A DNA stretch of 64,000 nt. Origin: Kiritimatiellia bacterium (GTDB lineage: Bacteria > Verrucomicrobiota > Kiritimatiellia > RFP12 > JAAYLN01). The DNA lies in assembly GCA_045603485.1 (NCBI GenBank), contig JAZUMF010000005.1, positions 40,784 through 104,783 on the forward strand. The letters run 5' to 3'. The position numbers and the translations under genes are program-made. Below, one piece after another: positions 12,552-58,354 of this stretch. The notes under the pieces were generated by a model. That model did not search any database. It was not told the DNA's origin and was given only the letters and a program-made list of their open reading frames with translations. The stretch's first letter is position 1; every line of letters begins with the position of its first letter.

Positions 12552-12602
12552 TCTGAATTCGTCAATGGATAATTTTTTTGAATTAGCTTGAGAGGTAAAA
12601 AC

Positions 12603-39649: not shown

Positions 39650-39725
39650 AGGCTGTTAGCTCAGTTGGTAGAGCATGTGACTTTTAATCACAGGGTCGCG
39701 GGTCCGAATCCCGCACGGCCTACCA
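39650..39725 (+). tRNA. tRNA-Lys (anticodon TTT)
   Basis: Hand-folded cloverleaf: acceptor AGGCTGT/ACGGCCT, D-arm GCTC..GAGC, anticodon loop CTTTTAA, T-arm GCGGG-TCCGAAT-CCCGC, and an encoded CCA. Confidence 0.9.
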
Positions 39726-39735
39726 AATTTTTAAT

Positions 39736-39812
39736 CGGGGTGTAGCGCAGTCTGGTAGCGCGTCTGCCTTGGGCGCAGAAGGTCGTGGGTTCGAATCCCG
39801 CCGCCCCGACCA
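39736..39812 (+). tRNA. tRNA-Pro (anticodon TGG)
   Basis: Acceptor CGGGGTG/CGCCCCG, anticodon loop CTTGGGC, T-arm GTGGG-TTCGAAT-CCCGC, and an encoded CCA. Confidence 0.9.
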
Positions 39813-40379
39813 TTTAAAATCCCGCTGAAACGGAGAATGGTTCATTCTGCGTGTATGCGGAAACAAGAAAATTCCCAGTAATTTGGGGATTTTTCGTTTT
39901 TCTCCCCTTTCGTTTTTCTCTCCTCTCCTCTTTTCAGGGAGCGATTTCTTCCATCTCCCGGCAAAACAGCCCCGACTTTCTCTGCGTGGATTGTCATAGG
40001 TTCATTCTACGCTTCGCCCAATGTTTACAGGGGTGAAATGCGTGTCACGCTCGTTCTCGGCGCGTTTTTCGGCGCGGGTTGTCATGTTTATCATAGAGAA
40101 CGGTGTGCTTCTTTGCGCACTTTTACGTCGTCTGGCGATAAAACTCCGAACGCATCTTGAACGGGCAGCGCATCGGAAGTCGAGCGACCCCGGAATGCCG
40201 CTTATGAAAAAGTCCGTTAATTCATGTAACGCTGCATCGTATAAGCGTCTGGAGAGGAATAAAATCGTCGCGTCGAGGCGGGTCTAGAAAAGATGAAAAT
40301 AGTCGTCTATTCCCGCTTGACTGTATGCGACATACTACGGCATCATATGCCCGGAAAATCGTAATGGTGACAATAGGAG

Positions 40380-40808
40380 ATGGAAACGCTGCCAAAGGCA
40401 TTGGCCGACGAAATCGAGTGCCTCGAAGAGCTGGATGCGAGGGCTCTCAAGAGAAAGTATCCGGCATTGCTTTCCGATGCTGGTGATTGCTCGGCGAGCG
40501 GGATTCTGCGCTCCATTGTCGCATACAGGCTTCAGGAGAAGCACTACGGACGCCCGCTCGCGGAGGATGCCAAGTCATGGCTTGATGCCGACGACGGAGG
40601 CGACGGCCCGCGTCTGCGCACGGCGGTGTCCGGATCGGGCGCGAGGGCGCGTCTGGTGCGCGTATGGAAAGGCGTGAGACATGAGGCGGTCGTCAGGAAT
40701 GACAGCCGCTTCGAGTACAACGGGGAGATATTCAATTCGCTTTCCGCGATAGCCAAGGTCATCACGGGAACCCACTGGAACGGGAGACTGTTCTTCGGAA
40801 TCAAGTAG
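40380..40808 (+). CDS. DUF2924 family protein (accessory gene of serine-recombinase integrative elements)
   Basis: The C-terminal region VWKGVRHEAVV..FEYNGEIFNSLSAIAKVITGTHWNGRLFFG matches the DUF2924 signature. An RBS (TAGGAG) precedes it. Confidence 0.75.
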   Translation: METLPKALADEIECLEELDARALKRKYPALLSDAGDCSASGILRSIVAYRLQEKHYGRPLAEDAKSWLDADDGGDGPRLRTAVSGSGARARLVRVWKGVRHEAVVRNDSRFEYNGEIFNSLSAIAKVITGTHWNGRLFFGIK

Positions 40809-40820
40809 GAGACGGACGCC

Positions 40821-41214
40821 ATGACGAGAATAGACGCTAAGACGATGGAAAGCCTTGTCGCGCTCCTTTCGAGCGTGGTGGAGAGGCTGCGGCCTGACGC
40901 TGTGCGCCGAGCCAGGGACGGAGGTGCGGGATGAGGCAGATGCAGGAGATGAAGCGGTGCGCGCCCTGCAAAAGTGCCACAAATTGGCAGACCTGCTCAC
41001 GACTGGCACATACCACGAAAAGAAGGCGCTCGCGGACGCCCTTGGCCTCAGCAACTCCTACCTCGGCAAGATGCTGCGCCTCGCATACCTCTCGCCGAGG
41101 ATCGTGGAGACGATCATGCCCGGCGAACTTCCGTCAATATCCGTGACGAAGCTGCAGGAACTCGACACTCCGATATGGGAGGAGCAGGAGCGGATGCTGG
41201 GGATGCGGAGATAG
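40821..41214 (+). pseudogene. Frameshifted ParB-like HTH protein remnant
   Basis: ATG 40821 opens a 37-codon frame. The ParB-type HTH (ALGLSNSYLGKMLRLAYLSPRIVETI) lies in the +1 frame 40855..41214, which has no ATG ahead of the HTH. Confidence 0.45.
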
Positions 41215-41419
41215 GTGGCCTTGGGACAAGGGCTGTCAGACGATGGAGTGGTTGAGACAGCTACTCCCTCGCCACTTCAGAGGCAGTATGCAATAAAGCC
41301 ATGCCGATTCCGCGAAAGCAAAGTTCAAATCGCAAAGTTTTGAAGTTTACCATTGACATTGTAATCAGAATTATAATACAATATCCAGCCATAGGGCTAA
41401 CTATGCCCTTGAACAGGGA

Positions 41420-42002
41420 TTGGAAATGATAGAAGCGAAAAAGCCGACGGCACAGAGGAGCATCTTTGCGCAATGGCGTGAAGGTGTAGTTGGGCGTTGT
41501 CATTTTCCGTGGCTGACGTTACGGCGGATGGTCTTTGTTCTTGCATCTGCTGTGGCTGTCTGGGTGCATGTCGCCGAAGCCAGTATTCCGCTGACGGTAA
41601 AATGTCGATGTGAACGGGCTGATGCCGATCGTGACATTGGGAGCAAGACGGAAACGCTTTGGATATTTGTGCTTGATCACTCTGGTTCAATGGGTAATCA
41701 TCGAGATGCCTACAGTATCAAGCGAGGGACGGGATCTGGTTTGCGTTGGACGGCTCTTAAAGATAGTTTTGAGGAAACTGTGCAATCAATCCCGATTGGA
41801 GCGAGCGTTCAAGTTCCTCCTGTTCCTCGGTATCGTTGGCGCGATTGGATATGTTTGCGTAACGGCCAATGTCGATTGGAGCAACTACAAGGAGCGCTTT
41901 GCCAACATCAAGGAGACTGCGCAGGAGGCCAAGGAGTGGGTCCAGCAGCACGGCGAGAAGCTGCATGTCATCCTTGAAACAGCACTGGAGTCCGACGATT
42001 AA
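41420..42002 (+). pseudogene. Possible frameshifted gene: vWA-like N-terminal fragment joined to a small TM/coiled C-terminus
   Basis: Frame 1 carries FVLDHSGSM, a MIDAS-like DxSxS motif, and then degenerates. Frame 2 (41610..42002) carries a clean TM helix and a helical tail. The two frames overlap near 41800. Confidence 0.3.
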
Positions 42003-42004
42003 AG

Positions 42005-42889
42005 ATGAACCTGTTCTTGCAGCTACTTGGGAATGGCCTTGTACAAGGCGCGGTCGCGATGCTCTACGCGGCCGGTTTTGGCATTGTCTACAGGTCATTT
42101 CGCGTGTTTCACATAGCGATGGGAGCGCAGTTTGTCTTTTCGTGCTATGCGTTCTACACGTGCGCAGCGGTGTGTAAACTTCCGCTGACGGTTTCGGTGC
42201 CGGCGGTGCTGGCGCTGTCGGCTATTTTCGCCGTGCTGATTGAACGTGCCGTCTATCATCCGTTTGCCCGGAAGCGCTGCTCGTCCGGCGTTATGATGAT
42301 CGCTTCGCTCGGTATCATGATTGTTATTGAAAATGTCATCGCGCTCATTTACGGGAATGAGGTGAAAACGATTTCAAATCAATTGGAGCCGTCCGTCGTG
42401 TTTGCAGGACTTCGCTTTACCCGCATTCAGGTTCTTCAGTTCCTTGTCGGGTTTGGTGTGTTCACCTTCGTCGGTATGGCGGTGCGCTACGGCAAATGGT
42501 TCAAGGCGTTGTGGGCAATGGGCGACCAGCCCGAACTCTTGGCCGTTCTTGGGCTGCCTGTGCGTCGGTTGCGTCTTGGTGTGATGATGCTTGGCGGTGT
42601 GCTGGTGGCGATTCCGGCGATGTTGATTTCATGGGATATCGGAATGGATCCGCATGTCGGTATGCACTATCTTCTGCTCGGTTCGGTAGCGGTGTTTTTC
42701 GGAGGCGCCGACAGATATTGGGCCTGGGGCGCGGGTGCGTTGCTCCTCTCTGCGTTGCAAAGCCTTGCCGTTTGGCAGCTTTCGGCACGGTGGACCGATC
42801 TTGTGACGTTCGGCGTCTTGATTTTCGTTCTGATGTTCCGTCCGCAGGGGCTTTTCGGCGTGAGCAAACGACTGGAGGAGTCCAAATGA
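42005..42889 (+). CDS. livH: Branched-chain amino acid ABC transporter permease LivH
   Basis: LivH-like N-terminus LLGNGLVQGAVAMLYAAGFGIVY. Polytopic. Confidence 0.85.
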   Translation: MNLFLQLLGNGLVQGAVAMLYAAGFGIVYRSFRVFHIAMGAQFVFSCYAFYTCAAVCKLPLTVSVPAVLALSAIFAVLIERAVYHPFARKRCSSGVMMIASLGIMIVIENVIALIYGNEVKTISNQLEPSVVFAGLRFTRIQVLQFLVGFGVFTFVGMAVRYGKWFKALWAMGDQPELLAVLGLPVRRLRLGVMMLGGVLVAIPAMLISWDIGMDPHVGMHYLLLGSVAVFFGGADRYWAWGAGALLLSALQSLAVWQLSARWTDLVTFGVLIFVLMFRPQGLFGVSKRLEESK

Positions 42890-43755
42890 ATTATCTTCTC
42901 CATATCGGCGTGATGCTGGGCATCTACGGGATGTTGGCTCTTTCGACCAATCTGCTGATCGGGTTCGGCGGGCTTCTTACGATGGCGCAGGCCGCCTTTT
43001 ACGGACTTGGTGCTTACACATACGCGCTTTTGTCGCTTAAATTGGGGCTTCCGTTCTATGTGACGCTTCCCGCTGCTGTCGCGCTTTGCGCGCTCGTCGG
43101 CTGGCTGTTCGGACACGCCGCGCTCAGATTCCGCAATGAAGCATTCGTTCTGGCGACGATAGGATTTCAGATGATCGTCTATGTCGTTCTTTACAACTGG
43201 ACCGATCTGACGCGCGGACCGTATGGAATCTCGGGGATCCCACGTCCGTCGCTTTTCGGCATGAGTATAGAATCCGTGCCTGCATATTTCGTGTTCACTC
43301 TCGTTCTCTTCGCCCTCGTTCTCGCTTTTGTGCATCTTGTCGTCCAAAGTCCGTTCGCGCTTTCGCTCAAAGCCCTGCGCGACGACGAGGCCGCGGCGCA
43401 GACCTTGGGCATCTGTCCCAAGGGGCAGTATATCAAGGCCATGGTTTTTTCGTCTGCGGTCGCCGCGGTGCCGGGCGTATGTTTCGCAAGTTACATTACC
43501 TACATCGATCCGACAAGTTTCACGCTTTCAGAGTCGATTTTCATAGCCTGCATTCTGCTTGTCGGCGGATCGGGCAATATCGCAGGCCCTATGTCCGGCG
43601 TTGTGTTCATGATTGTTCTTCCTGAACTTTTGAGGTTTGTCGGCCTTCCGGATGCGGTCGCGGCGAATCTGCGCGAGATAATCTACGGCGTGTTGCTGAT
43701 CGTTCTTGTGTACATGAAACCTAAAGGATTGGCAGGTGCATATGCAGTCAAGTAA
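42886..43755 (+). CDS. livM: Branched-chain amino acid ABC transporter permease LivM
   Basis: The N-terminus MNYLLHIGVMLGIYGMLALSTNLLIGFGGLL is LivM-like. The upstream extension in the ORF track (from 42496) is rejected. Confidence 0.85.
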   Translation: MNYLLHIGVMLGIYGMLALSTNLLIGFGGLLTMAQAAFYGLGAYTYALLSLKLGLPFYVTLPAAVALCALVGWLFGHAALRFRNEAFVLATIGFQMIVYVVLYNWTDLTRGPYGISGIPRPSLFGMSIESVPAYFVFTLVLFALVLAFVHLVVQSPFALSLKALRDDEAAAQTLGICPKGQYIKAMVFSSAVAAVPGVCFASYITYIDPTSFTLSESIFIACILLVGGSGNIAGPMSGVVFMIVLPELLRFVGLPDAVAANLREIIYGVLLIVLVYMKPKGLAGAYAVK

Positions 43756-44551
43756 GAGCGATCCGCGCATAATAGAGCCTGTCGAGCTGCGGGTTGAAAA
43801 CGTCGGGAAGCGCTTCGGCGACTTCGTGGCGTTGCACGATGTGAACATCACCTGCGCACTTGGGAAAGTGACAGCGCTCGTCGGTCCGAACGGCGCTGGT
43901 AAGACAACGTTTTTTCACGTCATCGCCGGGAGCCTCAAGCCCGACGGCGGTAAAGTCTATCTCGGCGATAAGGAGATAACCGGAATGCCACCGTATAAGA
44001 TCGCGCGTCGGCATGTCGGTCGTCTTTTTCAGGATATTCGCATATTCCCTGATTTGACCGTCTTGGAGAATGTGCAGGTTTCGCTCCTGCACGCGTCGGA
44101 TTATTCGTTTGCGTCCACATTTGCGTTTTGGCGGTTTGCCGCGCGTGATGCCGACCGCTACGAACGCTCGATGAAGTGGCTTGATTTTGTAGGGTTGTCG
44201 GATGACGCCGCCAAGCCGGCGCTCGAGCTCTCGTATGGTCAGCAGAAACTTCTCGCTTTTGCGCGTCTTGCGGCACTTCGCCCGGCCGTACTTTTATTGG
44301 ACGAGCCTACGGCGGCATTATCGCCCGCAATGGCGAGTAAGATGGTAGGTCTAATAAAGCGCCTTGTCTCTGAGCAAGGTTTGACGGTTGCGTTGATCGA
44401 GCATAATATGGGTGTAGTAAGGGAGCTCGCGGATTATATCTATTTTCTTCATGAAGGATCCGTTTATATGCAGGGTACACAGAAAGAGGTTCTTGAAAAT
44501 CCTTTAGTCCGTAAACTCTATATGGGGCTGGGAGGTGCTGCATGCTGCTGA
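43736..44551 (+). CDS. livG: Branched-chain amino acid ABC transporter ATPase LivG
   Basis: Walker A GPNGAGKTT, LSYGQQK signature, and Walker B LLLDEP. Confidence 0.85.
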   Translation: MHMQSSKSDPRIIEPVELRVENVGKRFGDFVALHDVNITCALGKVTALVGPNGAGKTTFFHVIAGSLKPDGGKVYLGDKEITGMPPYKIARRHVGRLFQDIRIFPDLTVLENVQVSLLHASDYSFASTFAFWRFAARDADRYERSMKWLDFVGLSDDAAKPALELSYGQQKLLAFARLAALRPAVLLLDEPTAALSPAMASKMVGLIKRLVSEQGLTVALIEHNMGVVRELADYIYFLHEGSVYMQGTQKEVLENPLVRKLYMGLGGAACC

Positions 44552-45249
44552 CGATGGAGCATATCTTTTGCGGCTACGGCGATAGACCTGTACTCAATGA
44601 TGTCAGCCTTTCCGTTAATGAAGGTGAGGCTGTGCTGATCGCCGGGCCGAATGGCTGCGGAAAGTCTACGCTTTTGAAAGCTGTTTCAGGGGTGCTTAAG
44701 TTGTCTGCTGGCAATATCAAACTATCCGGAGAATCGCTCGCGGGACTTTCGGTCGAGCGGCGTATTCGATCGGGTATCGGTTATTTGCGCCAAAGCGATA
44801 ACATCTTTCCCGGTCAGACGGTCGAGGAGAATCTTGGGCTCGCCGGGATGATGCTTTCAAGAGCGATATATTTGTCCGCGAGAGATGAGATGTTGGAACT
44901 TTTCCCTTTTCTTAAAGCGAAACTTAACGATCGGGCAGGCTCATTATCTGGTGGGCAGCGTCAGGCACTCGCATTAGCGATGGTATTCCTAAGCCCTAAA
45001 AAGCTCTATCTTCTTGATGAGCCGACGGCAGGGCTTTCGCCTGCAGCCGCACAGGATATTATGGGTCGGGTACGTCAATTCGTGAAGGACGATGCGATGC
45101 GCTCGGTTCTTATGGTGGAGCATCGGCTTGATCTTTTGTCGTGGGTCGATCGTGCGGTCTTTCTTTCGCAGGGCAAGGTCAAATCCGAAATCGAGAATAT
45201 CGCGCTTCTTCAGGATGCCGAATGGCTCGCGAAGAATTATTTTGAGTAA
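44542..45249 (+). CDS. livF: Branched-chain amino acid ABC transporter ATPase LivF
   Basis: GPNGCGKST, LSGGQRQ, and LYLLDEP. Confidence 0.85.
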   Translation: MLLTMEHIFCGYGDRPVLNDVSLSVNEGEAVLIAGPNGCGKSTLLKAVSGVLKLSAGNIKLSGESLAGLSVERRIRSGIGYLRQSDNIFPGQTVEENLGLAGMMLSRAIYLSARDEMLELFPFLKAKLNDRAGSLSGGQRQALALAMVFLSPKKLYLLDEPTAGLSPAAAQDIMGRVRQFVKDDAMRSVLMVEHRLDLLSWVDRAVFLSQGKVKSEIENIALLQDAEWLAKNYFE

Positions 45250-45265
45250 AGTGGGAGAAGGCTGT

Positions 45266-46702
45266 ATGACGATGACACGGTTAGATGAATTACTGAGAAA
45301 CGGCGAAGGACTCGCCACAGAGTTCAAGCGGTGCTCGGGTAGAGTTGAGCACGATGTGTTTGAGTCTATCTGCGCATTCCTTAACAGGTTTGGCGGCGAT
45401 GTGTTACTTGGGGTCGAGGATGACGGGACTGTTGTCGGGATAAAAGGCGATCCGGTCGCATTGCGCAATAATATTATGAATATTGCGAATGACGGGAATG
45501 TTTTTGATCCGGTTGCATATATCGCGCCTGAGATTGTCGAGTATGATGGTAAGACGATTATCAGTGTTCATGTTCCTGCAAGCGGCGAGATTCATGCTTA
45601 TAAGGGCGTTGTTTATGATCGCAACGGCGATGCGGATGTGCGTGTGCGCTCGACGGCGGCCAAGGGTATGATGTTGCTGCGCAAACAGGGTGTTTTCACT
45701 GAACAGCGGATATATCCGTATGTTACAAAGGCCGATTTGAATCTTGCCGATCTAAAGCGGCTTCGCATTCGTGCGCAGAATAACAGCCGTGATGAAAGCC
45801 GCCATCCGTGGATGGATATGGATGATGATCAGCTTCTGCGTAGTGCCAAGCTGGTTGGCACAGATCGTGAATCTGGTAAGAGTGGTTTTAACCTTGCGGC
45901 CGTTATGCTGCTTGGAACGGAAGATGTTATAAAAGATATTTGCCCCGCATATGTTACGGATGCCATTTTGCGTGTTAAAGACATTGATCGTTATGACGAT
46001 CGCGATGTGGTCGGTGTTAATTTGATTGCGGCATACGACAGATTGATGGATTTTGCGAGAAAGCATCTTCCGGATCCGTTTTTTCTTGAAGGGGATATCC
46101 GTAAAAGTCTTCGTGAAATTATCGTCCGTGAAATGGTGGCAAATACGCTCATTCATCGCGAATTTACGAGTTCGCGCCCGGCGCGGTTTGTCATTGAACG
46201 CAGCCGAATGTATGTTGAGAATGCATGTCGAGCATCCTGCGGTGATGCATTGACGCCCGAGAATTTTGTCCCCGACCCAAGAAATCCCATAATAGCCAAC
46301 TTCTTCAGGGTGATTGGCTACGCTGACCAACTCGGCTCTGGTGTTAGGAATCTTTTCAAGTACGCCAAGGCATACGGCGGTTCTGATCCTAAGTTGAAGG
46401 ACGGAGACATATTTCGGATTGAGGTGTCGCTTCAGTCTGTAAAGGTGGGGGCGACTATGGAGAAAATGTCTGCTACTAGGGAGAAAACTAGGGAGGAAAC
46501 GACAGCTACTAGGGAGAAAACTAGGGAGAAAATCATTGCCTTCCTTTCAGATCATCCAAGTGCTACACAGGATGTCATAGCGAATTCGGTAGGGTTGTCA
46601 GTGAAAGGTGTGGAGTGGAACATAAAGGCGTTGAAGGATTCAGGACGCATCCGCCGTGTTGGCCCAGACAAAGGTGGACATTGGGAGGTTGTCTCGCAAT
46701 GA
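45266..46702 (+). CDS. AlbA_2 (Schlafen-like divergent AAA) / HATPase_c_4 / winged-helix ATP-binding regulator
   Basis: The N-terminus RLDELLRNGEGLATEFKRC...GGDVLLGVEDDGTVVGI matches the AlbA_2 (AAA_4) fold pattern. A C-terminal wHTH is present. An internal tandem duplication reads ATREKTREETT/ATREKTREK. Confidence 0.55.
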   Translation: MTMTRLDELLRNGEGLATEFKRCSGRVEHDVFESICAFLNRFGGDVLLGVEDDGTVVGIKGDPVALRNNIMNIANDGNVFDPVAYIAPEIVEYDGKTIISVHVPASGEIHAYKGVVYDRNGDADVRVRSTAAKGMMLLRKQGVFTEQRIYPYVTKADLNLADLKRLRIRAQNNSRDESRHPWMDMDDDQLLRSAKLVGTDRESGKSGFNLAAVMLLGTEDVIKDICPAYVTDAILRVKDIDRYDDRDVVGVNLIAAYDRLMDFARKHLPDPFFLEGDIRKSLREIIVREMVANTLIHREFTSSRPARFVIERSRMYVENACRASCGDALTPENFVPDPRNPIIANFFRVIGYADQLGSGVRNLFKYAKAYGGSDPKLKDGDIFRIEVSLQSVKVGATMEKMSATREKTREETTATREKTREKIIAFLSDHPSATQDVIANSVGLSVKGVEWNIKALKDSGRIRRVGPDKGGHWEVVSQ

Positions 46703-47551: not shown

Positions 47552-48040
47552 ATGGATAAAATGGGTCAGGAACAGATAGTTGACGCAGTGCGCAACTGGC
47601 TTAAAGCTAACGACTGGTATTACGATTACAATGCCGAGAAGCATATGTTCAATATGAGCATCAGCCTCAAGAGCAAATTACAGTCAGGCAGGATATTCGT
47701 AGATGTCAAGGAAGACTGTTACGCGGTGTACATTTACGCGCCAATTAGGGGCAAGGACAATCTCGCCGAACTCACCAAGTACCTGACGATGGCCAACTAC
47801 GGCCTGCTCAACGGGAACTTCGAGCTGGACGTAGACGACGGCGAAATCCGCTACAAGACCTACGTGAATTGCGATGGGTTGCAGGAGCTCTCTTCAGCGG
47901 TTATCGAGGACAGCATTTACGTCGGCTGTGTTATGATGGATCGCTATGGCGACGGCATCGCCGCGCTTGCGCTTGGGTTCTCCGATGCCGACACGGAAAT
48001 CAAGAAGGCAGAAAAAAAGGACGAGTCTTCTGCTTCGTGA
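47552..48040 (+). CDS. YbjN-family protein (T3SS-chaperone-like putative sensory transduction regulator)
   Basis: A 162-aa acidic protein with the YbjN-like pattern: the DWYYDY region, then YAVYIYAP...LNGNFELD. Confidence 0.55.
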   Translation: MDKMGQEQIVDAVRNWLKANDWYYDYNAEKHMFNMSISLKSKLQSGRIFVDVKEDCYAVYIYAPIRGKDNLAELTKYLTMANYGLLNGNFELDVDDGEIRYKTYVNCDGLQELSSAVIEDSIYVGCVMMDRYGDGIAALALGFSDADTEIKKAEKKDESSAS

Positions 48041-48077
48041 AAGAATCTATTTTCTTTAGAAAGAAAGGTATGCAACG

Positions 48078-49199
48078 ATGAAGATTAAGAAGAACCTGTT
48101 ACTGGTCGTTATCCCAACGGTCACTGTTTTGGCATTTGTCATATTTTTTGCATGCCGAAACAGACAACCAGCTTCTGCCGATAATGCTGTCCAAGTTGGT
48201 GTGATTCTGCCTTTGACGGGCTCGCTTGGATATGAAGGAACTCGTATGAAAGATGCGATGGACTTGGCATTGTCCCAATTAGATGGTGAAAAACAACAAT
48301 GTTTAAAACTCAATTACGAAGACGGGAAGTTTTTGGTTCGCGATTCCATATCGGCGTTCAACAAATTAAACGAGAAGGGGATGGATGCATGGGTCATTTT
48401 TGGTGATACGCCGTTGTTAGGCATGAAAACTTTACTTGAGAAGACTGGAAAACCAGTTTTGTGCCTCATTGGAGCTCAGGATCTAGTCAAAGATTCGCAA
48501 ACGTTCTTCCATTTTTCGGGATCTATAACGTTGCCGGCTATTGAGAATGCTAAGTTTGCCAAGCGCAAGGGCGTGAAGACGGTCTCTTTAATTTATTTAA
48601 ATGAACAGATTGGTTTGGAGGTGAAGGGTGCTTTTGAACGGGAGTTTATAGACGAAGCACATAAGGTAGTCGCGTCAGAGGGATTTGACATGGGGCAACG
48701 AGCAATGAAGAGTTTGGTTGCGAAAGCTATTGCGCCTAATCCTGACGCAGTATTTGTTTATGGATATGCGACTCCATATATTGAAATCTTAAACGAAATA
48801 AAAAATGTTGGCTACCGTGGAATTGTTTTGACAGATGGAAATCTTGCCGCTGTAAAACCCGATCTTATCGATGGTGGGGAGGGCGTTTGGTATGCAGATT
48901 TTGATTTTGGCGATGGATGTGAGAACCCAGAGACTAAAAAGTTTCTGCATGACATGCATGACATCTATGGGGAGACTGCGAGTTCCTTTTCCGCATTTGC
49001 CTATGAAACGGTACGTGTGCTGTCGACAATTATCCATGATAAGGGTAAAACCCCTGCCGATATTCATAGCGGATTGTTGGCAATTAAGGACTACCACTCT
49101 ATTTTTGGTGTGATATCGTATCGTGACAATAGGGAACTTGAAATCCCAGTAGTGATTAAAAAGGCAACACGGGATAGCGCACAAGTTGTTAATGATTAA
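48078..49199 (+). CDS. Leu/Ile/Val-binding-protein-like periplasmic binding protein (ABC substrate-binding or sensor PBP)
   Basis: N-terminal TM/signal anchor, then a type-I PBP fold pattern (VQVGVILPLTGSLGYEG...). It lies immediately upstream of the giant gene and is coupled to it. Confidence 0.75.
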   Translation: MKIKKNLLLVVIPTVTVLAFVIFFACRNRQPASADNAVQVGVILPLTGSLGYEGTRMKDAMDLALSQLDGEKQQCLKLNYEDGKFLVRDSISAFNKLNEKGMDAWVIFGDTPLLGMKTLLEKTGKPVLCLIGAQDLVKDSQTFFHFSGSITLPAIENAKFAKRKGVKTVSLIYLNEQIGLEVKGAFEREFIDEAHKVVASEGFDMGQRAMKSLVAKAIAPNPDAVFVYGYATPYIEILNEIKNVGYRGIVLTDGNLAAVKPDLIDGGEGVWYADFDFGDGCENPETKKFLHDMHDIYGETASSFSAFAYETVRVLSTIIHDKGKTPADIHSGLLAIKDYHSIFGVISYRDNRELEIPVVIKKATRDSAQVVND

Positions 49200-49212
49200 G
49201 GAGGCTCCGCTC

Positions 49213-52200
49213 ATGGATGCAGGACCGGATGCACAGCATGGTGTAAATACAGGCGTTGTGGAATCCAAATACTATGTGGATGTATGGTTGCCGGACGCTA
49301 AAGACTATCCGGGGTTGAGAGGAGCAAGTCCCAAAGTCCAAGAGGCATTGGGTCTAGGCCTTGGACTTCCAGATAAACCTACAGTTGTTCCACTTGGTGA
49401 AATAGAAATTAATCTTAAGCCTCGGTTCTATAAGCGAAACGAAAAGAATCTTGATATTGATAGTGAATCGGTCGCGGCCATTTCGTTTTCGGAAGATTTC
49501 GCGAAGCAGTGTAATTCCAATGATGTGGCCGTTCTTGCAATGATGGGTGGGGTTCTTCCTGCAGGGAAGAATTTCTTTAGAATGGGTTTTTCCGTTGAAA
49601 CTATTGCGGCCATCATTGGAGATCAGATTATTAATGATAATGACGGACGGGTGTCTCATGTTTTTTTGATTCGTGTGGATAATGATCTTGGAAATGAATT
49701 TGAACGAGCATTCTCAAGGGCGGTGAATGCCCCAAACCAAGGGCGTTCTTTGGATATACTCAAGATTGATGAGAACGGTACCCCCATTACTAAGAAGATA
49801 CAAATTACGCCGACGGACGAACAGGTGGCACGGAATACCTCAACGAATGAGGGTGTTATTAGTAAATGGTTGACTAGTTGTATTAAAAATCCGGAACACC
49901 CAAGAAATCAAGGCCTGAGATCTGTTGTCATATATGGATATTGGGAGCAATATTGGAATTTCGTAATAGAAGTATTAAGATGCAAAGCCTTTTGTAACGA
50001 CGAAGATTGGTTATATGTTGAGTCAAATTACCCGCTACATTATCCCTTTATTCTTTATGAAGCACGACATGTAGATGATTTAGATCAAGATGATTTGCAA
50101 AATTTTACTAAAGAACGCACTGATGATATTATTCCGAGATCGGTGGAAATTACGAGTTCGGGAAAAAATAATAAAAGGATAATGGGAGATAAAAAACAAG
50201 AGAAAACAGGAGGTGAAAGTCCAGAGAAACCGCCGGAGAGTGTGTTTCACCCTCAGAAGGGGAATTTGCAAAACAACAATGAAGACGAAAGGGATTTCAA
50301 TATATTTAATGAAAAGAAAATGGCTCATGCGAGTACGATAGCTCATGCGATCAAGAATAGGGATGAACCTGAAGAAGAGCATCAAAAAGAATCTAAGGAA
50401 CTCAGTCAAGAAAAGCTTATGCCGAGGGAACTTAAGCGAATTCGTTGTATAACGGGTAGACTCGTTAATGATGGTGAAAGTAGTTTCATTACATTTGCGA
50501 AGGAAACGGTTCGCCTGCTTCGTGCTGCTATTAGGGACGCTCATGAAAAAAAGGGAAAAGCGCAAGATCGGACCATCAAATCTATACGAGAATGCATATG
50601 CAAGTTTTTGGCAAATAGTAAGTTCTATGCAGCGGAACATCTAGGGTCTTTCTTTTTTCGAAAAGATGGTGAATTGTTTTTCCCTCTCTACCTCTATAAC
50701 GGAAAGCTTGAGCGACAAAGAATCGTCAGAGAGTCTTGTTGTAAGGGTGATGAATTCACAAAGGAGGCTATAGCCGATCAATTACTACAACTATCTAATT
50801 CTCTGAACAAGATAACGCGGGCTGAAATCCCCCGCAACCTTAAGGTAGGCAATTCGGATGGTGCTAAGAAGGTATTTGAGGAATTCAGTAAAATAATTGC
50901 TGACATCTCAAAGGGAATTGAGATTAAGTTTGTAAGCTATTATCCTAATACAGAGCACCTGTTCTATACATGGACAGATACGCAGGAGGGAAATGTTGAT
51001 AAGACGGAGCGATTTATCAATGTTAGCATTTTTGATGATGTTTGTAAAAAAATACAAGGTGTAATCCAGATTAACTTAAAAGATTTTGATTTGGAAGATA
51101 ACGATGCATATAGAGTATATTTGGTCTACGAGAGGACTGAAAAAGTTTTTGATGCATTAACTCTGGCGGAGTGGTGGAATACACAAAGCAATGATTGCCA
51201 GGCGACGATTATAGCTGGGAATAAAGGTTGGGAGAGATGTCTATTGCCTGTTAAGGCGGTTGTGTTTGCCAAATCAAGGATTGGGAAACAAGACGGTCAG
51301 ACGGATGAGGGTATGTCTGAAAACGAGTATAAAGATATTATAGACAATGCCAATTATGCACACTACTACCGCGACTGCGACGGCCATGAAAGCAAGTTCA
51401 AGTTTGATGAGATTTTAAGTGGTCTTTGTAAACTTCTTGGGTGTAGTGGAGACAACGGCAATTCAGAATCAGATGCCCGTTTTTTATATTATATTCCTGA
51501 ATATATTCCGGAAGACAACAAACCTGAAGGCAATAATAGTTACAAGATAGGTGGGCAAGGCGGAATCGTTATGGCGACTTGTTGCAAGTTGTCTTTGTTT
51601 GATTTGCAAATTGTTGAGAATATGGTCTCCCACATTTTTTCTAAGCTAAAAACATGTTTGGCAGAACATGATGTCCTCCTTTCAAATATAAAATCTGCCA
51701 TTGGCTCCATAATGTCTCGCAATGGTTCTCATAACATTGGTAGCCATGTATTGGCGGCACTGTCGCACAATGTGGGAACATTGCCGGATGATAGGGTGTT
51801 ATATCAGTATATTCAGCAGCGGATGGATTATATTGCAACGGTGACGACGGACTTTCCGACATGGACGCAACCGACAATGTTTGTAGCCGATATGATGAAA
51901 ACTTTTTTATCGCAGAGGCATTTATTAGATCATATTGTGGAGAGCGAAGGGTTGCATGCATTTCAGTTTCAAAATCCTAATATGACGGATGAGGAGTGGG
52001 CGGCTCAAGAAAACTGTGTAAAGATTTATGTTAGGAAGTTAGATGGTGATGGAAGTGTAAAGGACTTCATTGAATATGAAAAGGGTAAACGAGAACTTCC
52101 CATTGATTTGACTAATGATGTTGATTTAGCAATTCCCGGGGGAATAATTGGTGAACATGCGTTCTATACGATTCTTGAAAATATAATTCGGAATGCCGCG

Positions 52201-54687
52201 AAACATTCTTGGGCGAAGATTAAACAATGGCAAATAAGGCAAAACGAAATTGAGTTGCAGTATAATAATTTGGAGCTTTTCATTGATTTTGAAGAAAAGG
52301 ATGATGAGGTTAAGTATAACGTTTATGCAAAGTTGCCGATGGCTCAGGTAGTTGTGGAAAAATCTAAAGCTGACAATAAATTATGTCAGAAGGTGATTGC
52401 TTCAGAACAACTGATTAAATGGAAGGAAAAGTTTGATGATATGGGTGTAGTGAAAGCAAAGGAGGAAAATGCTTTTAAGGAGCTGCCAGATTATGAACAG
52501 GAACAGGTCAAACTACATTTGGCTAATCTCAAAGACGATCCACTTAAAAAATGGGTAGATAGATATGACAAACAAGGCGGATTGACATCTGATGAGCAGA
52601 AGGAGTTTGATTCATTGGCGATTCATCATAAGCAACAAGTTATGTTGGCGAGGCCTTTTATTGATTCGCAGGGAGCACTTCGTCGTGAGAATTGGGGTAT
52701 GGCAGAAATGAAGATATCGGCAGGATATCTCGCTGGCGAATCTATTGAGGCGATAGGGGGTATTGGAGACAAAAAAGGAAGTAATGAAATTATAACGCCA
52801 CGCATCAAATCAGAAAAGGTCAAGAGGAAATGTATAGAATCAGGGGAAAAAGTAACAGAAATTGAGGTCGAAGAACTATATTTAGGCTATGAATTTTCTA
52901 TTGCCAAACCCAAGGAAATATTGATTATAGTTGCGGAGGAGCTGAATAGGGAAGGAAAAGACGATGAATGGGGTAGTGAAAATATTCGTAATGAATTAAA
53001 AAAGCATGGGATTTTTGTTAAGACAGTTAGCGAGATAAAACAGGAGAACCGTCTTAATTACAGGTATGTAGTTCATTATAATGCACGTGAGTTGTTTGAT
53101 AAAAATTATCATGTTAAAGATGATGTTTTATTGCCGTTTAGAGTGTTAAGTGTGGCGGATATTGAGGATGAAAGGCTTAAAGATTTTATTCCGACAATAG
53201 ATATAAGTAAACTAAAAGAGTGTTTCGAGAAGGGCACTGAAGATCCGAAAAACGGAATTCAAAAACTTGTCTACGATACTTATCTTAAACATTTTTTGTC
53301 ACAACGGAGTGTAGATAATATTGGTCTTTTGGTTGCGATAAATGAAAATGAGAAATCTGGCGGAAATAGTTTGATTTCGGATGCGGATATTCTTGAATTG
53401 ATGCTTGAGCAGAATTTTGCTGTGTGCGTAGCTCAATACAAGGAATTTGCAGCTAACGAAGATAAGATTATTAAGTGTTTAGAATCGATTCGTCATAAAA
53501 GTAGTGCTAAAGATACAGTAATAAAGTTTAAGCACTTCTCAAATAAGACGATAAGGGAATTGATTGCACAACGTATGTGCGATTGGGCTGGAAAGTCTAA
53601 TGATTCATGGATTCCAATAGTTGAACATTTGCGTAAAAAGTATTTCGTATCAGATGCTGAGAGCGAAACTTCCAATGAGCTTAAGCCAAGTAATAATGAA
53701 ATATCAGTTGATTTTGCAGCAAGTGTAAATTCTCTGTCGCAAAAACATCCGATTGATGATTTTATCCGTTATGTGGAATCGATTTTTGAAAATACAAAGA
53801 AACTGTTTAAACAGTATGAAGAGCAGATTGTGACGTTGCCGGCAGGGTATAAGGTTCAATCTTCTGATGTTGGAGAAGGGGCGTCGCTTATAGACGGGAT
53901 TAAGATTATTACATCAGCAGAGAAAGAAGAACTTGAAAAAGAAAAAGATCGCCACTGGATTGGGTATCGCCGTCATGCTCATACGCTACCTGTTGATGAT
54001 TCCAAGAGACTTTATGTTGAGCCGTTAAGCGGAACTCAGACATACTTGTCACAATTGGCGAGAGTAAAAACCGATCTTGGATTGCAAATGCGTCTTATAG
54101 AAAATGGCCTTATGCGTATTCTTGTTCTTGATGAACGAGTTGCGAAGTTCCTTCGTGAGCATCAAAAGGAAGTTGGCCCGCATTATAAGTCGATGAATAT
54201 CCATGTCATTGATCACGAATGGGTTGTTGCTGGTGGAGAAACTCCTCCTGAGGGTTTTTACGGAAAGTTTACTTCTGTGCACAAAGAAGCGTTGAAATCA
54301 TTTGTAAAACCGAAAGATTCTAATGATGGTGAGAATAACCAAAATGGGAATGCCGATGTGAGCTCGAATTCGAACCTTACTATGTTTGATGATGTTGACA
54401 TCTTAATCGTTCATCAGGGGATTCTGGATAAATGGTACCCTGAATTCAAAAATCGTAAGGATATGTGGAAGTTATTGGAAGGGTTCAAGAAATTAGTGAA
54501 ATATGTTGTCGTGACTACTGGTCGAGGGACTCCGGAGAACATACCTGAAGAGACTCATCTGTTGCCGTTCGCCGTCGTTGAATCTACACTCTTTAAGAAA
54601 TATCCAGAGAAGTTGATCTTAACAGATACTATCATGAATGTCCTTCCTGTTGGGAAGAAGAACGACAACTCTGGAGGCCAAAAATGA
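49213..54687 (+). CDS. Giant (1824 aa) cytoplasmic protein with a histidine-kinase-type GHKL ATPase N-box and a degenerate receiver-like C-terminus; AT-rich
   Basis: ATG 49213 lies 10 nt after AAGGAGG, which overlaps the PBP stop. N-box-like LENIIRNAAKHS at about 52176-52210. An upstream H-rich motif SRNGSHNIGSHVLAALSH at about 51712-51765. C-terminus RILVLDERV...DILIVHQGILD...YVVVTTGRG. No Walker A and no TM helices found. The nucleotide composition is visibly AT-rich compared with the flanks. Confidence 0.6.
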   Translation: MDAGPDAQHGVNTGVVESKYYVDVWLPDAKDYPGLRGASPKVQEALGLGLGLPDKPTVVPLGEIEINLKPRFYKRNEKNLDIDSESVAAISFSEDFAKQCNSNDVAVLAMMGGVLPAGKNFFRMGFSVETIAAIIGDQIINDNDGRVSHVFLIRVDNDLGNEFERAFSRAVNAPNQGRSLDILKIDENGTPITKKIQITPTDEQVARNTSTNEGVISKWLTSCIKNPEHPRNQGLRSVVIYGYWEQYWNFVIEVLRCKAFCNDEDWLYVESNYPLHYPFILYEARHVDDLDQDDLQNFTKERTDDIIPRSVEITSSGKNNKRIMGDKKQEKTGGESPEKPPESVFHPQKGNLQNNNEDERDFNIFNEKKMAHASTIAHAIKNRDEPEEEHQKESKELSQEKLMPRELKRIRCITGRLVNDGESSFITFAKETVRLLRAAIRDAHEKKGKAQDRTIKSIRECICKFLANSKFYAAEHLGSFFFRKDGELFFPLYLYNGKLERQRIVRESCCKGDEFTKEAIADQLLQLSNSLNKITRAEIPRNLKVGNSDGAKKVFEEFSKIIADISKGIEIKFVSYYPNTEHLFYTWTDTQEGNVDKTERFINVSIFDDVCKKIQGVIQINLKDFDLEDNDAYRVYLVYERTEKVFDALTLAEWWNTQSNDCQATIIAGNKGWERCLLPVKAVVFAKSRIGKQDGQTDEGMSENEYKDIIDNANYAHYYRDCDGHESKFKFDEILSGLCKLLGCSGDNGNSESDARFLYYIPEYIPEDNKPEGNNSYKIGGQGGIVMATCCKLSLFDLQIVENMVSHIFSKLKTCLAEHDVLLSNIKSAIGSIMSRNGSHNIGSHVLAALSHNVGTLPDDRVLYQYIQQRMDYIATVTTDFPTWTQPTMFVADMMKTFLSQRHLLDHIVESEGLHAFQFQNPNMTDEEWAAQENCVKIYVRKLDGDGSVKDFIEYEKGKRELPIDLTNDVDLAIPGGIIGEHAFYTILENIIRNAAKHSWAKIKQWQIRQNEIELQYNNLELFIDFEEKDDEVKYNVYAKLPMAQVVVEKSKADNKLCQKVIASEQLIKWKEKFDDMGVVKAKEENAFKELPDYEQEQVKLHLANLKDDPLKKWVDRYDKQGGLTSDEQKEFDSLAIHHKQQVMLARPFIDSQGALRRENWGMAEMKISAGYLAGESIEAIGGIGDKKGSNEIITPRIKSEKVKRKCIESGEKVTEIEVEELYLGYEFSIAKPKEILIIVAEELNREGKDDEWGSENIRNELKKHGIFVKTVSEIKQENRLNYRYVVHYNARELFDKNYHVKDDVLLPFRVLSVADIEDERLKDFIPTIDISKLKECFEKGTEDPKNGIQKLVYDTYLKHFLSQRSVDNIGLLVAINENEKSGGNSLISDADILELMLEQNFAVCVAQYKEFAANEDKIIKCLESIRHKSSAKDTVIKFKHFSNKTIRELIAQRMCDWAGKSNDSWIPIVEHLRKKYFVSDAESETSNELKPSNNEISVDFAASVNSLSQKHPIDDFIRYVESIFENTKKLFKQYEEQIVTLPAGYKVQSSDVGEGASLIDGIKIITSAEKEELEKEKDRHWIGYRRHAHTLPVDDSKRLYVEPLSGTQTYLSQLARVKTDLGLQMRLIENGLMRILVLDERVAKFLREHQKEVGPHYKSMNIHVIDHEWVVAGGETPPEGFYGKFTSVHKEALKSFVKPKDSNDGENNQNGNADVSSNSNLTMFDDVDILIVHQGILDKWYPEFKNRKDMWKLLEGFKKLVKYVVVTTGRGTPENIPEETHLLPFAVVESTLFKKYPEKLILTDTIMNVLPVGKKNDNSGGQK

Positions 54688-55280
54688 AATATTATGTCTT
54701 TATCGCAAGAGACGAGGAAGAGTTTTCGCGCTATCCTCAAAGTGGGTTTCAGGAGCTGAAGAGGGATTTTGCAAAAACGATTCGCCATAAGGAGATGGGA
54801 GACTCATATTTATTGATTATATCAAGCGATGTGAAGCCTAAGAATGCAGAATCGGATGAAGATGTTAAGATGATGTGTTTTAAGGTTGCAGCTGCGATAA
54901 AGTTAGTAAATACAAATTACGATTATGCAGCAGGTAATGATTGTGTGCATATTTTTGTTCATGTGGGTGGAGAAGGTAGTTGTGGCTTAGGGAAAATGGA
55001 GGAAAGTCTAAAAAAGAAGGTTGGAGAAATAAAGGAAAATTGGAAAGTTTTTCTTTTAAGTTCAAGCTGGCGCTGGAGAATTGATGTCAAGCAGTCTATG
55101 ATTAGATTGCCTAATAGAGAAGGGGAACTTGATGTTCTTGTAAAGCGGTGCGAGATGGACATTGCCGCTGAGATTTTAAAAGGATTTAAGGCTCGTTATA
55201 GTACTACTGAGAAAAAAGATTGCTATGATAAAATCTGTGAAAAGCTTTCCATTGTTAAGATTGAGGAGAAGAGAAAATGA
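54684..55280 (+). CDS. Small hypothetical protein (198 aa), possibly a degenerate receiver/flavodoxin-like fold
   Basis: ATGA overlap with the upstream and downstream genes. Alternating beta-alpha pattern: YYVFIARDEE, YLLIISSD, VHIFVHVGG. No recognisable catalytic motif. Confidence 0.45.
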   Translation: MKYYVFIARDEEEFSRYPQSGFQELKRDFAKTIRHKEMGDSYLLIISSDVKPKNAESDEDVKMMCFKVAAAIKLVNTNYDYAAGNDCVHIFVHVGGEGSCGLGKMEESLKKKVGEIKENWKVFLLSSSWRWRIDVKQSMIRLPNREGELDVLVKRCEMDIAAEILKGFKARYSTTEKKDCYDKICEKLSIVKIEEKRK

Positions 55281-58200: not shown

Positions 58201-58354
58201 GACAGCACTGACATGTTTGTATTCGTTTAAACTGTATTTAAAACAAGGAATGCCGGAAGCCGCAACAGCACTTGTAATGGCGGGATTGCTTTGCGTGGAG
58301 AAGTTGAATCCGCCAGATGACTGTTTCGAAGCATCTAATCAGAAAACATTATGA
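55277..58354 (+). CDS. Receiver (REC) domain fused to a eukaryotic-like Ser/Thr protein-kinase-like domain (1025 aa)
   Basis: REC: VLVVDDN (56101-56127), VILLDLSL, IIIYSEHED, DWFLKKS. Kinase: G-loop KMGGGISSAV, beta3 VIIKI, catalytic loop HGDLNLKNIMI (57769-57803), and DFG-like LIDFARTR. Confidence 0.7.
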   Translation: MSNGRKLNLFIFDLAQHGELTNLVLWQVAKMFEMRCGICVASYSWCAPLKKEKFIPLFLCNSYDEIRAHGFNVPREFVFEVGLNPNPNYIDDPDNQPEMLCEILGDKIEDRLSLYKELEIGVSFEDVKDWCVGAFRRYLFMDDDVHGTSGTFSISELMKCNKETGLNVDDKYWQKWFGEFGDDKNKFNREMLRARFGVGVKNSSDSTTQNPKEDDPLRNYKDVLSVVFEEEFRCIKADVIENPGESYQRVKDFFEKKFPSQQGLALKFISPCGKIRVLVVDDNATAEVESLKSKESLSNIFDFAPLDLKKRDDESSNQFIKRSIGEIKNKSKECVDVILLDLSLGEATGSDLTGYHLIKRFKQWMPTAYIIIYSEHEDMGHIVRAFREGADWFLKKSEAQEKLARHFISLMANRKWRKEFGVIRPKYVLDIKGKDENFIAKFNVKEVWQYLTIKSLELLPGHYIKINKMGGGISSAVTFRAQKGITRDTEDNQAPVIIKIDSVFNTRMEYERYFRFIRPYIANESGRIEKREIVLNRDSAAIVYTFTGRRDAAHELNTLDELLRRDMLSRETCDYEKYRKMFNALFDEITARLHRVTPVAEFRDLKTDPEELSEFSDYPNRTFGELESDSISSSDQGHKSWFFSNFTYRMPIESVAEKFIISEGSSNPNEVYEVYGIQKDDLGKNSAKYPYTYVIECQRYKIKTENDNKELHQKVLLKGDLASYYARFRTHLWPGMLLSIKLGEGQTLNENELMSWCFCFCANKNLYQIRAEKTEDGSKQEGCFRISKKLYNKMAGWFKDKENRYLITVRDALKKLVDEEPHRFVCPVGIVHGDLNLKNIMIESRVNPPKEIQADITKVLSDVWLIDFARTRRDVVAHDFNVAFTSVLPLLFQPDLVGTHEKGKPFEQNDEQKKYVEELDEKLEPYLRHVLFDKYDTLSDLFAEDQRLVFMYKILRRIRKAALATGMSEDMYLLTTALTCLYSFKLYLKQGMPEAATALVMAGLLCVEKLNPPDDCFEASNQKTL

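Follow-up and report, generated by a model that had tools for sequence, protein, structure and literature searches.

Large serine recombinases (LSRs), or serine integrases, are encoded by phages such as phiC31, Bxb1, A118, and TP901-1. Looking for a direct repeat of a tRNA 3' end as evidence of att sites is a test suited to tyrosine integrases. The locus described here, in a stretch of 64 kb analyzed as a whole (the window), resembles the P4-like and lambda-like islands and prophages of tyrosine integrases in its position directly 3' of an intact tRNA gene, its tRNA-proximal integrase gene, and a strain-variable site prone to mosaic accretion and decay; it differs from them in that the recombinase is of the serine type and that the region is not bounded, in the window, by a repeat of 25-76 bp from the tRNA 3' end. 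Characterized serine integrases have been reported to insert within open reading frames (ORFs), with common cores of 5-8 bp (PMC8092301). Defective prophage remnants fixed by deletion are described as "grounded" or cryptic prophages (PMC6379469). In phage WO regions of Wolbachia, a DUF2924 gene lies immediately upstream of the recombinase (PMC10299305), as it does in the window, and DUF2924 partly matches the RAMA DNA-binding domain (PMC11342252).

We consider it likely, at a probability of roughly 0.85, that positions 39816-41329 of the window are the left end of a Kiritimatiellae element, temperate and phage-like, that an LSR inserted at tRNA-Pro(UGG) and that deletions later disabled and mostly removed. 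Like the grounded and cryptic prophages, it would be a small remnant beside an attachment site with integration and excision lost by deletion, and nothing essential sets it apart from them; this case comes from uncultured rumen/gut Kiritimatiellae and has unusually clear independent left-anchored truncations in relatives. The features of the locus and the evidence for each are as follows.

39736-39812, + strand: tRNA-Pro(UGG), intact, directly after tRNA-Lys (ARAGORN; Rfam tRNA, 68 bits)
39813-39816, no strand: junction zone (blastn and alignment; junction sequences of element copies compared)
39816-40379, + strand: conserved non-coding element leader (84-98% identity to L001, L003, L004, L108, and L115)
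40380-40808, + strand: intact DUF2924 gene, 142 aa (Pfam PF11149, 3e-29; phrog_11806, 4.5e-25)
40821-40934, + strand: intact 37-codon ORF (translations; conserved in L001 and L003; gene call in L003)
40931-40963, + strand: first 11 codons of the LSR, MRQMQEMKRCA (tblastn with residues 1-11; translations)
40957-40963, no strand: deletion junction J1, 7-nt microhomology GTGCGCG (both breakpoints in the intact copy L115)
40964-41214, + strand: last 83 codons and stop of the LSR, in another frame (homology to L003 and L115)
41215-41329, + strand: 115 bp of element DNA 3' of the LSR stop, the last retained element piece (97% identity to L115)
41330-41337, no strand: junction J2, element remnant to vWA block (homology end-points; alignment)
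41338-41812, + strand: 5' region of a vWA gene (homologues P0232-P0239; L102 94% identical up to 41812)
41806-41812, no strand: deletion junction J3, 7-nt microhomology CGTTCAA (window compared with L102 for vWA and L093 for the lipoprotein)
41806-42002, + strand: last 65 codons and stop of an MlaD-like lipoprotein gene (98.7% identity to L093 10494-10724)

In the left junction (attL), the 3' end of tRNA-Pro(UGG) forms the host half. A conspecific strain, L006, is 98.6% identical to the window over 6.2 kb upstream of the junction, remains identical through 39815, and is unrelated from 39816 on, 3 nt past the tRNA (blastn and alignment); the junction thus lies exactly at the tRNA 3' end, is polymorphic between strains, and recurs in many other hosts. 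The 1-4 nt following the CCA differ among element copies, and together with the L006 divergence point this places the crossover probably within 39813-39816. Only 196 bp of L006 lie past the junction, and this flank could be another insertion instead of an empty site. No copy of the flank was found in the 64-kb window, a scan of GTDB representative genomes with the 818-aa flank protein returned no close relative, and homologues of that protein (45% identical) were not syntenic, so that no clean empty site is available beyond those 196 bp. The search for a direct repeat that the initial annotation had proposed found no second att site and no repeat of the tRNA-Pro 3' end in the window, but this says little for a serine recombinase, as the att sites of serine integrases reportedly have only 5-8 bp in common (PMC8092301). 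With neither an attR nor an L006-type flank in the 64 kb, how far the element once reached in this lineage cannot be reconstructed. Conserved housekeeping genes (Mfd, HydF, and MetRS) lie upstream of tRNA-Pro and strain-variable mosaic DNA lies downstream, so the tRNA is the left edge of the variable region, and the accessory region begins where it had been placed.

The stretch 40821-41214 had been read as a ParB-like helix-turn-helix (HTH) gene needing a +1 frameshift. What is present is the 37-codon ORF, which overlaps at its stop with the start of the recombinase (ATGA), followed by the two ends of an LSR gene: 40931-40963 corresponds to residues 1-11 of the L003 protein and 40964-41211 to its residues 454-545. 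The tail protein is 78% identical to that of L003, and both pieces are 97% identical to L115 as DNA. Where the intact copies L003 and L115 go on with the catalytic-serine motif YTRKSTDE, the window has a deletion. The heptamer GTGCGCG occurs at both 959-965 and 2313-2319 of L115, and split alignments of the window to L001, L003, and L115 overlap by 7 nt where the halves join; the loss at J1 amounts to 1354 bp, or LSR codons 12-462, and shifts the frame. Only 11 N-terminal codons remain, the serine nucleophile of the resolvase catalytic domain is not present, and the Recombinase (PF07508) and zinc ribbon (PF13408) domains, both found in L003, L011, and L115, are gone. The gene is a dead remnant and no functional member of the family. 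The initial annotation's statement that no recombinase is present holds for a functional enzyme but overlooks both LSR ends, and its suggested search for a serine recombinase yields only the remnant at 40931-41214, as tblastn with the intact LSR found no second recombinase in the whole 64-kb window. The tail also carries an acquired stop in L004 and differs between the window and L004 by 6 non-synonymous and 1 synonymous changes, which fits a pseudogene.

The initial annotation had envisaged an old tRNA-targeted island that lost its recombinase entirely and retained DUF2924, frameshifted ParB-like and vWA cargo, and perhaps a cassette at 49 kb. The adjacency to tRNA-Pro and the intact DUF2924 gene agree with that picture, as does a weak match of the LSR tail to HTH_ParB (PF17762; E=0.003-0.005), but this match scores 17.4-18.0 bits, below the cut-off of 22.6, no ParB N-terminal domain was detected in 40821-41214, and intact LSRs end in a C-terminus that is 78-97% identical to this "ParB" stretch; the intact LSR tail matches phrog_14161 "recombinase." A defunct mobile element at the tRNA-Pro 3' end is indeed what we see, but "old" and "decayed" overstate its condition, since the remnant still matches intact copies at 97% identity and has been damaged by deletions only.

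Near-identical intact counterparts exist in L115 (97% nucleotide identity) and L108 (97.6%, running to the end of the L108 locus at 41265), with an LSR of 545 aa. The intact L003 and L115 proteins share with phage serine integrases the three-domain architecture (Resolvase, Recombinase, Zn_ribbon_recom) and a match to phrog_95 "integrase," which the family reaches at 4e-107; there are 102 relatives in IMG/VR. As in phage serine integrases, the gene lies at the element edge beside the att junction, and no long direct repeat is seen. The window copy differs from them in being dead, without codons 12-462, and the family differs in targeting the 3' end of a tRNA gene with the tRNA undisrupted, and in having a C-terminal, weakly ParB-like HTH tail and a constant DUF2924 partner. 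In L011, the same module at tRNA-Pro is followed by phage-type replication and recombination genes, namely those for exonuclease VIII, a Sak4-like annealase, DUF669, RusA, a helicase, and a primase. The 8-10 kb of sequence on hand next to intact copies showed neither capsid nor tail genes; what we call a prophage could accordingly be a satellite or another integrative element.

The insertion site recurs as well. The same tRNA stands directly before the same leader in L001 and L011 and in 7 of 12 loci from genomes and 8 of 14 from metagenomes, and the leader directly follows a full tRNA-Pro in twenty other loci, many with unrelated flanks and many with independent truncations. Truncations anchored on the tRNA side have at least nine further end-points (L107, L109, L112, L114, P0033, P0036, P0040/42, P0048, and P0049). 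More distant viral relatives may have tRNA-Asn and tRNA-Gln as targets. Contigs of relatives often end near the tRNA (L003, L004, L006, and L108).

The leader, given as 568 bp in length, is conserved, and some of its blocks are invariant even compared with L011, whose DUF2924 is just 58% identical. Site scans predict that 39867-39894 forms a terminator-like hairpin with a T-run and that 40317-40346 is a weak promoter-like site, and a 13-nt direct repeat, GGTTCATTCT(G/A)CG, occurs at 39839-39851 and 39999-40011. Rfam contains no RNA family matching the leader, and the leader motif is absent from IMG/VR. The stretch from 39813 to 40379 is non-coding, as had been noted: its sole sizeable ORF (88 aa, 40021-40287; Pfam match only 0.044) was rejected as a gene, since an indel breaks its frame in L003 and parts of it are deleted in L011. 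Contrary to the initial annotation, the sequence directly after the CCA is not GC-rich; the leader has 48.0% GC compared with 49.1% in the upstream 39 kb, and the GC-rich part is the DUF2924 gene and recombinase remnant (60-61%).

The DUF2924 gene is intact, as first described, and its protein aligns to profile positions 2-135 of 135 of PF11149 with 102.3 bits (cut-off, 31.2). Its predicted fold (model pLDDT 80) has a helical N-terminal half and a beta-rich, RAMA-like C-terminal half; in the PDB it comes closest to the DNA-bound RAMA domain of MPND and to CcrM, in both cases weakly (E ~0.06), and the match to Pfam RAMA has an E value of 0.002. These weak matches are consistent with the published partial match (PMC11342252). 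An exact look-up of the window protein found no record, and it had no match in PADLOC. A DUF2924 ORF lies directly upstream of the recombinase relative in 70 of 80 viral loci, and DUF2924 is the constant, apparently obligate, upstream partner of this LSR family. We regard it as a candidate DNA-binding accessory or directionality factor. The 37-codon ORF between DUF2924 and the LSR has no Pfam match; L011 has a related ORF of 29 codons, placed upstream of its DUF2924 gene.

That both ORFs are intact is compatible with some retained function, and one might imagine that the leader, DUF2924, and the 37-aa ORF have been kept by selection for host use, for instance to regulate genes by binding DNA or to confer immunity to related elements, with the recombinase being shed. 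The promoter-like site upstream, the occurrence of the same deleted form in at least three assemblies (the window, L004, and L005), and a DUF2924 dN/dS of 0.09-0.15 compared with the L001 and L003 copies could be taken this way. This low ratio, however, mostly represents divergence between functional elements before the deletion; the window and L004 differ by just 2 synonymous and 2 non-synonymous changes, which is uninformative; and DUF2924 itself is truncated at differing points in many lineages, which argues against general selection. We therefore regard host use as highly improbable and a dead prophage remnant as the better description.

To the right, homology to the element stops at 41329 and homology to the vWA loci of L097-L101 starts at 41338-41341, so that at J2 the remainder of the element is missing, right end included. 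The vWA gene has a promoter-like TTGACA-18-TACAAT at 41353-41382 (promoter scan) and an ATG at 41426, followed by ~129 codons with a signal/TM segment and the MIDAS-type motif DHSGS. The fragment itself, which keeps only about the first third of the domain, has no Pfam match, but its 54%-identical homologue P0239 matches VWA_2 at 30.8 bits (cut-off, 27). Past 41812, L102 continues as VQIYCVGG, and the window continues with the end of the MlaD-like lipoprotein gene, which is 229 aa in full (proteins P0244 and P0245; P0264 matches Pfam MlaD at 26.7 bits, cut-off 25.1). livH starts directly afterward at 42005, with livHMGF downstream. Both changes of reading frame that had been reported downstream of DUF2924 are thus real, but the second is a deletion fusion of two genes instead of a frameshift in a vWA-like gene, and 41426-42002 is a chimeric pseudogene.

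These data also bear on the island with a wholly lost recombinase, in which the vWA gene would be cargo. The DxSxS motif and the VWA_2 match of P0239 speak for this version, but the gene occurs without the element in L097-L102, and in other species (L097 and L098) it stands in a vWA-livH arrangement without a nearby recombinase; given also that element homology ends at 41329, the fragment is not element cargo, and 41338-42002 is host or variable-region DNA outside the element. The second half of the supposed vWA gene is the different 229-aa gene. The idea that the 49-kb cassette arrived together with the element is not supported: the cassette has 40% GC compared with 60% in the element genes, unrelated blocks lie between, and its strain history differs, with L004 collinear with the window at ~98% over 39984-43783 and falling to 66-80% beyond 43.8 kb. 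Proteins of the cassette had no match in PADLOC. With its details already refuted, we consider that version of events improbable, and we retain the deletion-disabled prophage end.

All three junctions lie at short repeats (7-nt microhomologies), and the contigs of those same relatives often break near the tRNA, as chimeric joins made by a metagenome assembler might produce. J1, however, is also present in the independent assemblies L004 (SRR24653856) and L005 (SRR24653752), J2 and J3 are present in L004, and the fused 183-aa ORF is found, 98% identical, in separate data as P0232; assembler k-mer sizes are also far above 7 nt. We give an assembly artefact almost no credence.

The course of events on the deletion-disabled prophage reading would be as follows. 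The element would have inserted just 3' of tRNA-Pro(UGG) via an LSR encoded with its DUF2924 partner upstream; a microhomology-mediated deletion of 1354 bp would then have taken the catalytic, recombinase, and zinc-ribbon domains; and a rearrangement at 41330-41337 would have taken everything right of the LSR, the right att site included, leaving 39816-41329 immobile. A third deletion, in adjoining DNA, would have joined the 5' part of the vWA gene to the MlaD-like 3' end upstream of livHMGF. The remnant probably persists because a deletion reaching farther left would damage the tRNA-Pro gene and the leader's terminator hairpin. The biology is ordinary and unsurprising, a clean and well-explained example of deletions at short microhomologies that erode a dead prophage and halt before an essential tRNA. 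For annotation, 39816-41329 is best labeled a dead integration module, 40821-41214 a small ORF and a recombinase pseudogene instead of a ParB-like gene, and 41426-42002 a chimeric pseudogene, with the left edge of the variable region fixed at tRNA-Pro.

The locus further suggests that rumen/gut Kiritimatiellae have a serine-integrase/DUF2924 family that targets tRNAs, of possible interest to collectors of serine integrases and accessory factors. A simple integration model does not explain why the leader is preceded in some loci only by a partial or degenerate tRNA-Pro 3' fragment (L111, L103/L125, L110, L126, L004, L116, and L127). Three of these, L111, L103, and L110, are intact copies with only 25-52 nt of tRNA-Pro upstream, which suggests a partial tRNA 3' mimic in attP; Pfam searches of the ORFs upstream of the fragments in these three did not separate attP forms from tandem or secondary sites. 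Tentatively, and with some doubt, the family could be an undescribed clade with an obligate RAMA-type DUF2924, a non-disruptive attB at tRNA 3' ends, and possibly such a mimic in attP. If so, a serine integrase would target its site much as tyrosine integrases do, and DUF2924 would be its candidate accessory or directionality factor. The first 23 nt of L004 had no match in the window and are a recurring alternative left flank, also found in L116 and L127 beside host-like genes.

The region following tRNA-Pro(UGG) is what deletions have left of a serine-integrase element at that tRNA gene, an ordinary case, with a chimeric pseudogene adjacent to it. Its features are as follows.

39650-39725, tRNA-Lys, upstream partner of tRNA-Pro(UGG)
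39736-39812, tRNA-Pro(UGG), directly upstream of the non-coding leader
39867-39894, terminator-like hairpin within the leader
40380-40808, intact DUF2924 gene, strong Pfam match
40821-40934, separate, intact 37-codon open reading frame (ORF), its stop overlapping the start of the large serine recombinase (LSR) gene; conserved in homologous loci L001 and L003
41426 (ORF start), first ~129 codons of a vWA-type protein, motif DHSGS
41806-41812, fusion junction, CGTTCAA

In L001, L003, and L011, close relatives of the DUF2924 protein are encoded immediately upstream of an LSR with Resolvase, Recombinase, and Zn_ribbon_recom domains. By blastn, positions 39735-40963 align with the tRNA-Pro, leader, DUF2924 gene, and LSR start of L001, and positions 40957-41204 with the final 250 bp of that LSR gene. 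The closest intact copies, L115 (97%) and L108 (97.6%), each encode an LSR of 545 aa; GTGCGCG stands at both breakpoints in L115, and the window has one copy (40957-40963). The 1354-bp deletion shifts the frame and takes out codons 12-462, the catalytic YTRKSTDE motif among them; the junction is genuine, since it is also found in independent assemblies L004 and L005. What the initial annotation read as a ParB-like HTH gene needing a +1 frameshift is therefore the intact 37-codon ORF plus this internally deleted LSR, and a recombinase, reported as missing, survives as its start and last 250 bp. The HTH_ParB match (~18 bits, below cut-off) falls in a C-terminal tail native to the LSR; in the intact protein, this tail matches phrog_14161, "recombinase." No other serine recombinase was found in the 64 kb, and no integrase domain in the larger ORFs of 42-64 kb. 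The small conserved peptide ORF, with the core ...L(V/L)ALL..V(V/M)ER(L/I).P..., separates DUF2924 from the LSR in the window, L001, and L003, but stands upstream of DUF2924 in L011 (421-510) and L109. Several LSR copies that are otherwise complete have a frameshift or rearrangement: L001 is split into two ORFs (10543-12170), L124 changes frame near codon 95 (11040-12658), and L118 is truncated, with an inverted fragment; these could reflect decay or sequencing error.

The leader (39813-40379) holds no convincing gene, its longest ORF being disrupted in relatives, and an Rfam scan of it matched no RNA family. It is non-coding, as first described, but not GC-rich: its GC content is 48.0%, against 49.1% in the upstream DNA, and the genes after it reach 60-61%. 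The call of an intact DUF2924 gene stands. Its AlphaFold model (pLDDT 80) is helical in the N-terminal half and rich in beta structure in the C-terminal half, and its best PDB matches, the MPND RAMA domain bound to DNA and a CcrM methyltransferase-DNA complex, are weak (E ~0.06, 56-68 aligned columns). This agrees with a marginal RAMA match in Pfam and with the partial match of DUF2924 to RAMA noted in the literature (PMC11342252). We infer that DUF2924 may be a DNA-binding partner of the LSR.

The initial annotation correctly recognized a tRNA-targeted mobile element. The conspecific strain L006 is 98.6% identical to the window over 6.2 kb upstream and unrelated from 3 nt past the CCA, and a complete tRNA-Pro precedes the same leader in L001, L011, 7 of 12 GTDB genome loci, and 8 of 14 JGI metagenome loci; the DNA flanking these copies upstream is highly varied. 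Here, the upstream neighbors are housekeeping genes (ABC-F, PPIase, MetRS, HydF, and Mfd/TRCF), and an 818-aa membrane protein is encoded just upstream, whose homologues, where named, are from Kiritimatiellae or Kiritimatiellia; the DNA relatives of the element are from rumen and gut Kiritimatiellae MAGs, and the window itself belongs to an uncultured member of this group. The suggested search for a direct repeat of the tRNA-Pro 3' end found none in the 64 kb; this is no evidence against integration, as the common core expected for serine integrases is only 5-8 bp (PMC8092301). Among more distant relatives of the LSR in IMG/VR, the order is tRNA (Asn, Gln, or Pro), ~600 bp, DUF2924, and LSR, and DUF2924 lies directly upstream of the LSR in 70 of 80 of those viral loci. 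The L011 module runs on into phage-type replication and recombination genes, and an XRE-type HTH gene follows the module in L115.

Some left flanks are partial or degenerate. In L111, L103/L125, L110, and L126, only a 25-52-nt 3' fragment of tRNA-Pro precedes the leader, with non-tRNA DNA before it; the module is intact in L111 (fragment at ~6180-6232) and truncated in L103/L125 and L110, and the L126 contig stops before DUF2924. In L004, L116, and L127, what precedes the leader is a degenerate, tRNA-like stretch with CTCGACCA at its end. The alternative flank TTACGCTTTAAGAGCAAAGTGCTCGACCA, directly before the leader in these three independent contigs and two leader subtypes (L004, 1-29; L116, ~250-290, reverse strand; L127), resembles the tRNA-Pro 3' half minus the T arm, and in L116 it adjoins host-like genes (FMN reductase and hydrolase). 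Such flanks may represent attP forms with a tRNA mimic, fragments displaced by successive insertions, or secondary sites; if L111-type copies do have a tRNA mimic in attP, that would depart from what is usual for serine integrases.

Beyond the LSR stop, another 115 bp match L115, up to 41329, and from 41338 the window matches the region upstream of a vWA gene in other contigs (L097-L102); the remnant is therefore 39816-41329, ~1.5 kb, its cargo and right end gone. The vWA-like gene, previously thought to need a frameshift, is a deletion fusion. Homologue P0239 passes VWA_2, and relatives of the fragment read on as "...SVQIYCVGG." Both parental sequences contain CGTTCAA; there the window leaves the vWA gene and enters a 229-aa MlaD-like lipoprotein gene, of which it carries the final 65 codons (98.7% identity to L093), ending 2 nt before livH. 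A deletion thus fused two genes, and the change of frame is not a frameshift within one gene. In L097 and L098, a vWA gene lies right next to livH and no recombinase is near, so the vWA block is foreign to the element. In L097-L102, the gene is preceded by varied DNA (Smr/ComF-type genes, a Fic gene, or a transposase-like gene). The last, in another strain (L102, 258-1454), adjoins the vWA promoter block on its upstream side and encodes a 398-aa protein that is transposase-like by eye, although Pfam gave only weak HTH matches and no transposase domain; DNA to the left of the vWA gene is thus a recurrent rearrangement point. In L093-L096, the full lipoprotein gene ends a cluster encoding proteins of 1164 aa (Tubulin_2), 832 aa, and 1554 aa (transglutaminase core) and a 44-aa ORF; next come genes for ATPase_2/DUF234, an ABC ATPase, a protein of 1373 aa, and a TIR_2 protein. 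L093 keeps the first 32 nt of livH past the lipoprotein stop.

At least nine other truncation end-points occur in relatives, all anchored on the tRNA side: L107 and L109 retain the leader only, and in L112, L114, P0033, P0036, P0040/42, P0048, and P0049, DUF2924 breaks off after 44-76 codons, where it is joined to unrelated genes. Deletions would be tolerated only rightward, presumably because the tRNA-Pro gene and terminator-like hairpin stand on the left. The remnant had been considered old; at 97% identity to intact copies, it is not. The LSR tail has the same dN/dS between the window and L001 (0.14) as between L001 and L003 (0.11), so its divergence mostly pre-dates the deletion. It looks unconstrained since then; the window and L004 differ by six non-synonymous changes and one synonymous change, and L004 has a stop.

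Farther right lies a low-GC cassette, which had been proposed to have arrived with the element.

49186-54687, 1833-aa orphan, no Pfam or PADLOC match
54684-55280, 198-aa orphan
55277-58354, 1025-aa protein with a receiver domain (REC) and TCAD9, "ternary complex associated domain 9"

Co-arrival is unsupported: the block at 48000-58354 has 39.7% GC, versus ~60% for the element genes, blocks of other origin separate it from the remnant, and it lies beyond 43.8 kb, where L004, which shares the remnant at ~98%, falls to 66-80% identity. It resembles a conflict-system cassette gained by horizontal transfer, unconnected with the tRNA-Pro element. The sharp identity drop (43784-45287 compared) begins within livG, at ~43.78 kb, and L004 has no livF (44542-45249); this is a recombination breakpoint within the liv operon. 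Between livF and a periplasmic binding protein gene at 48078, positions 45092-46702 encode a Schlafen/AlbA_2, HATPase_c_4, and wHTH protein with weak PADLOC matches to prokaryotic Argonaute (Aga) group models of the SIR2-PNTD type.
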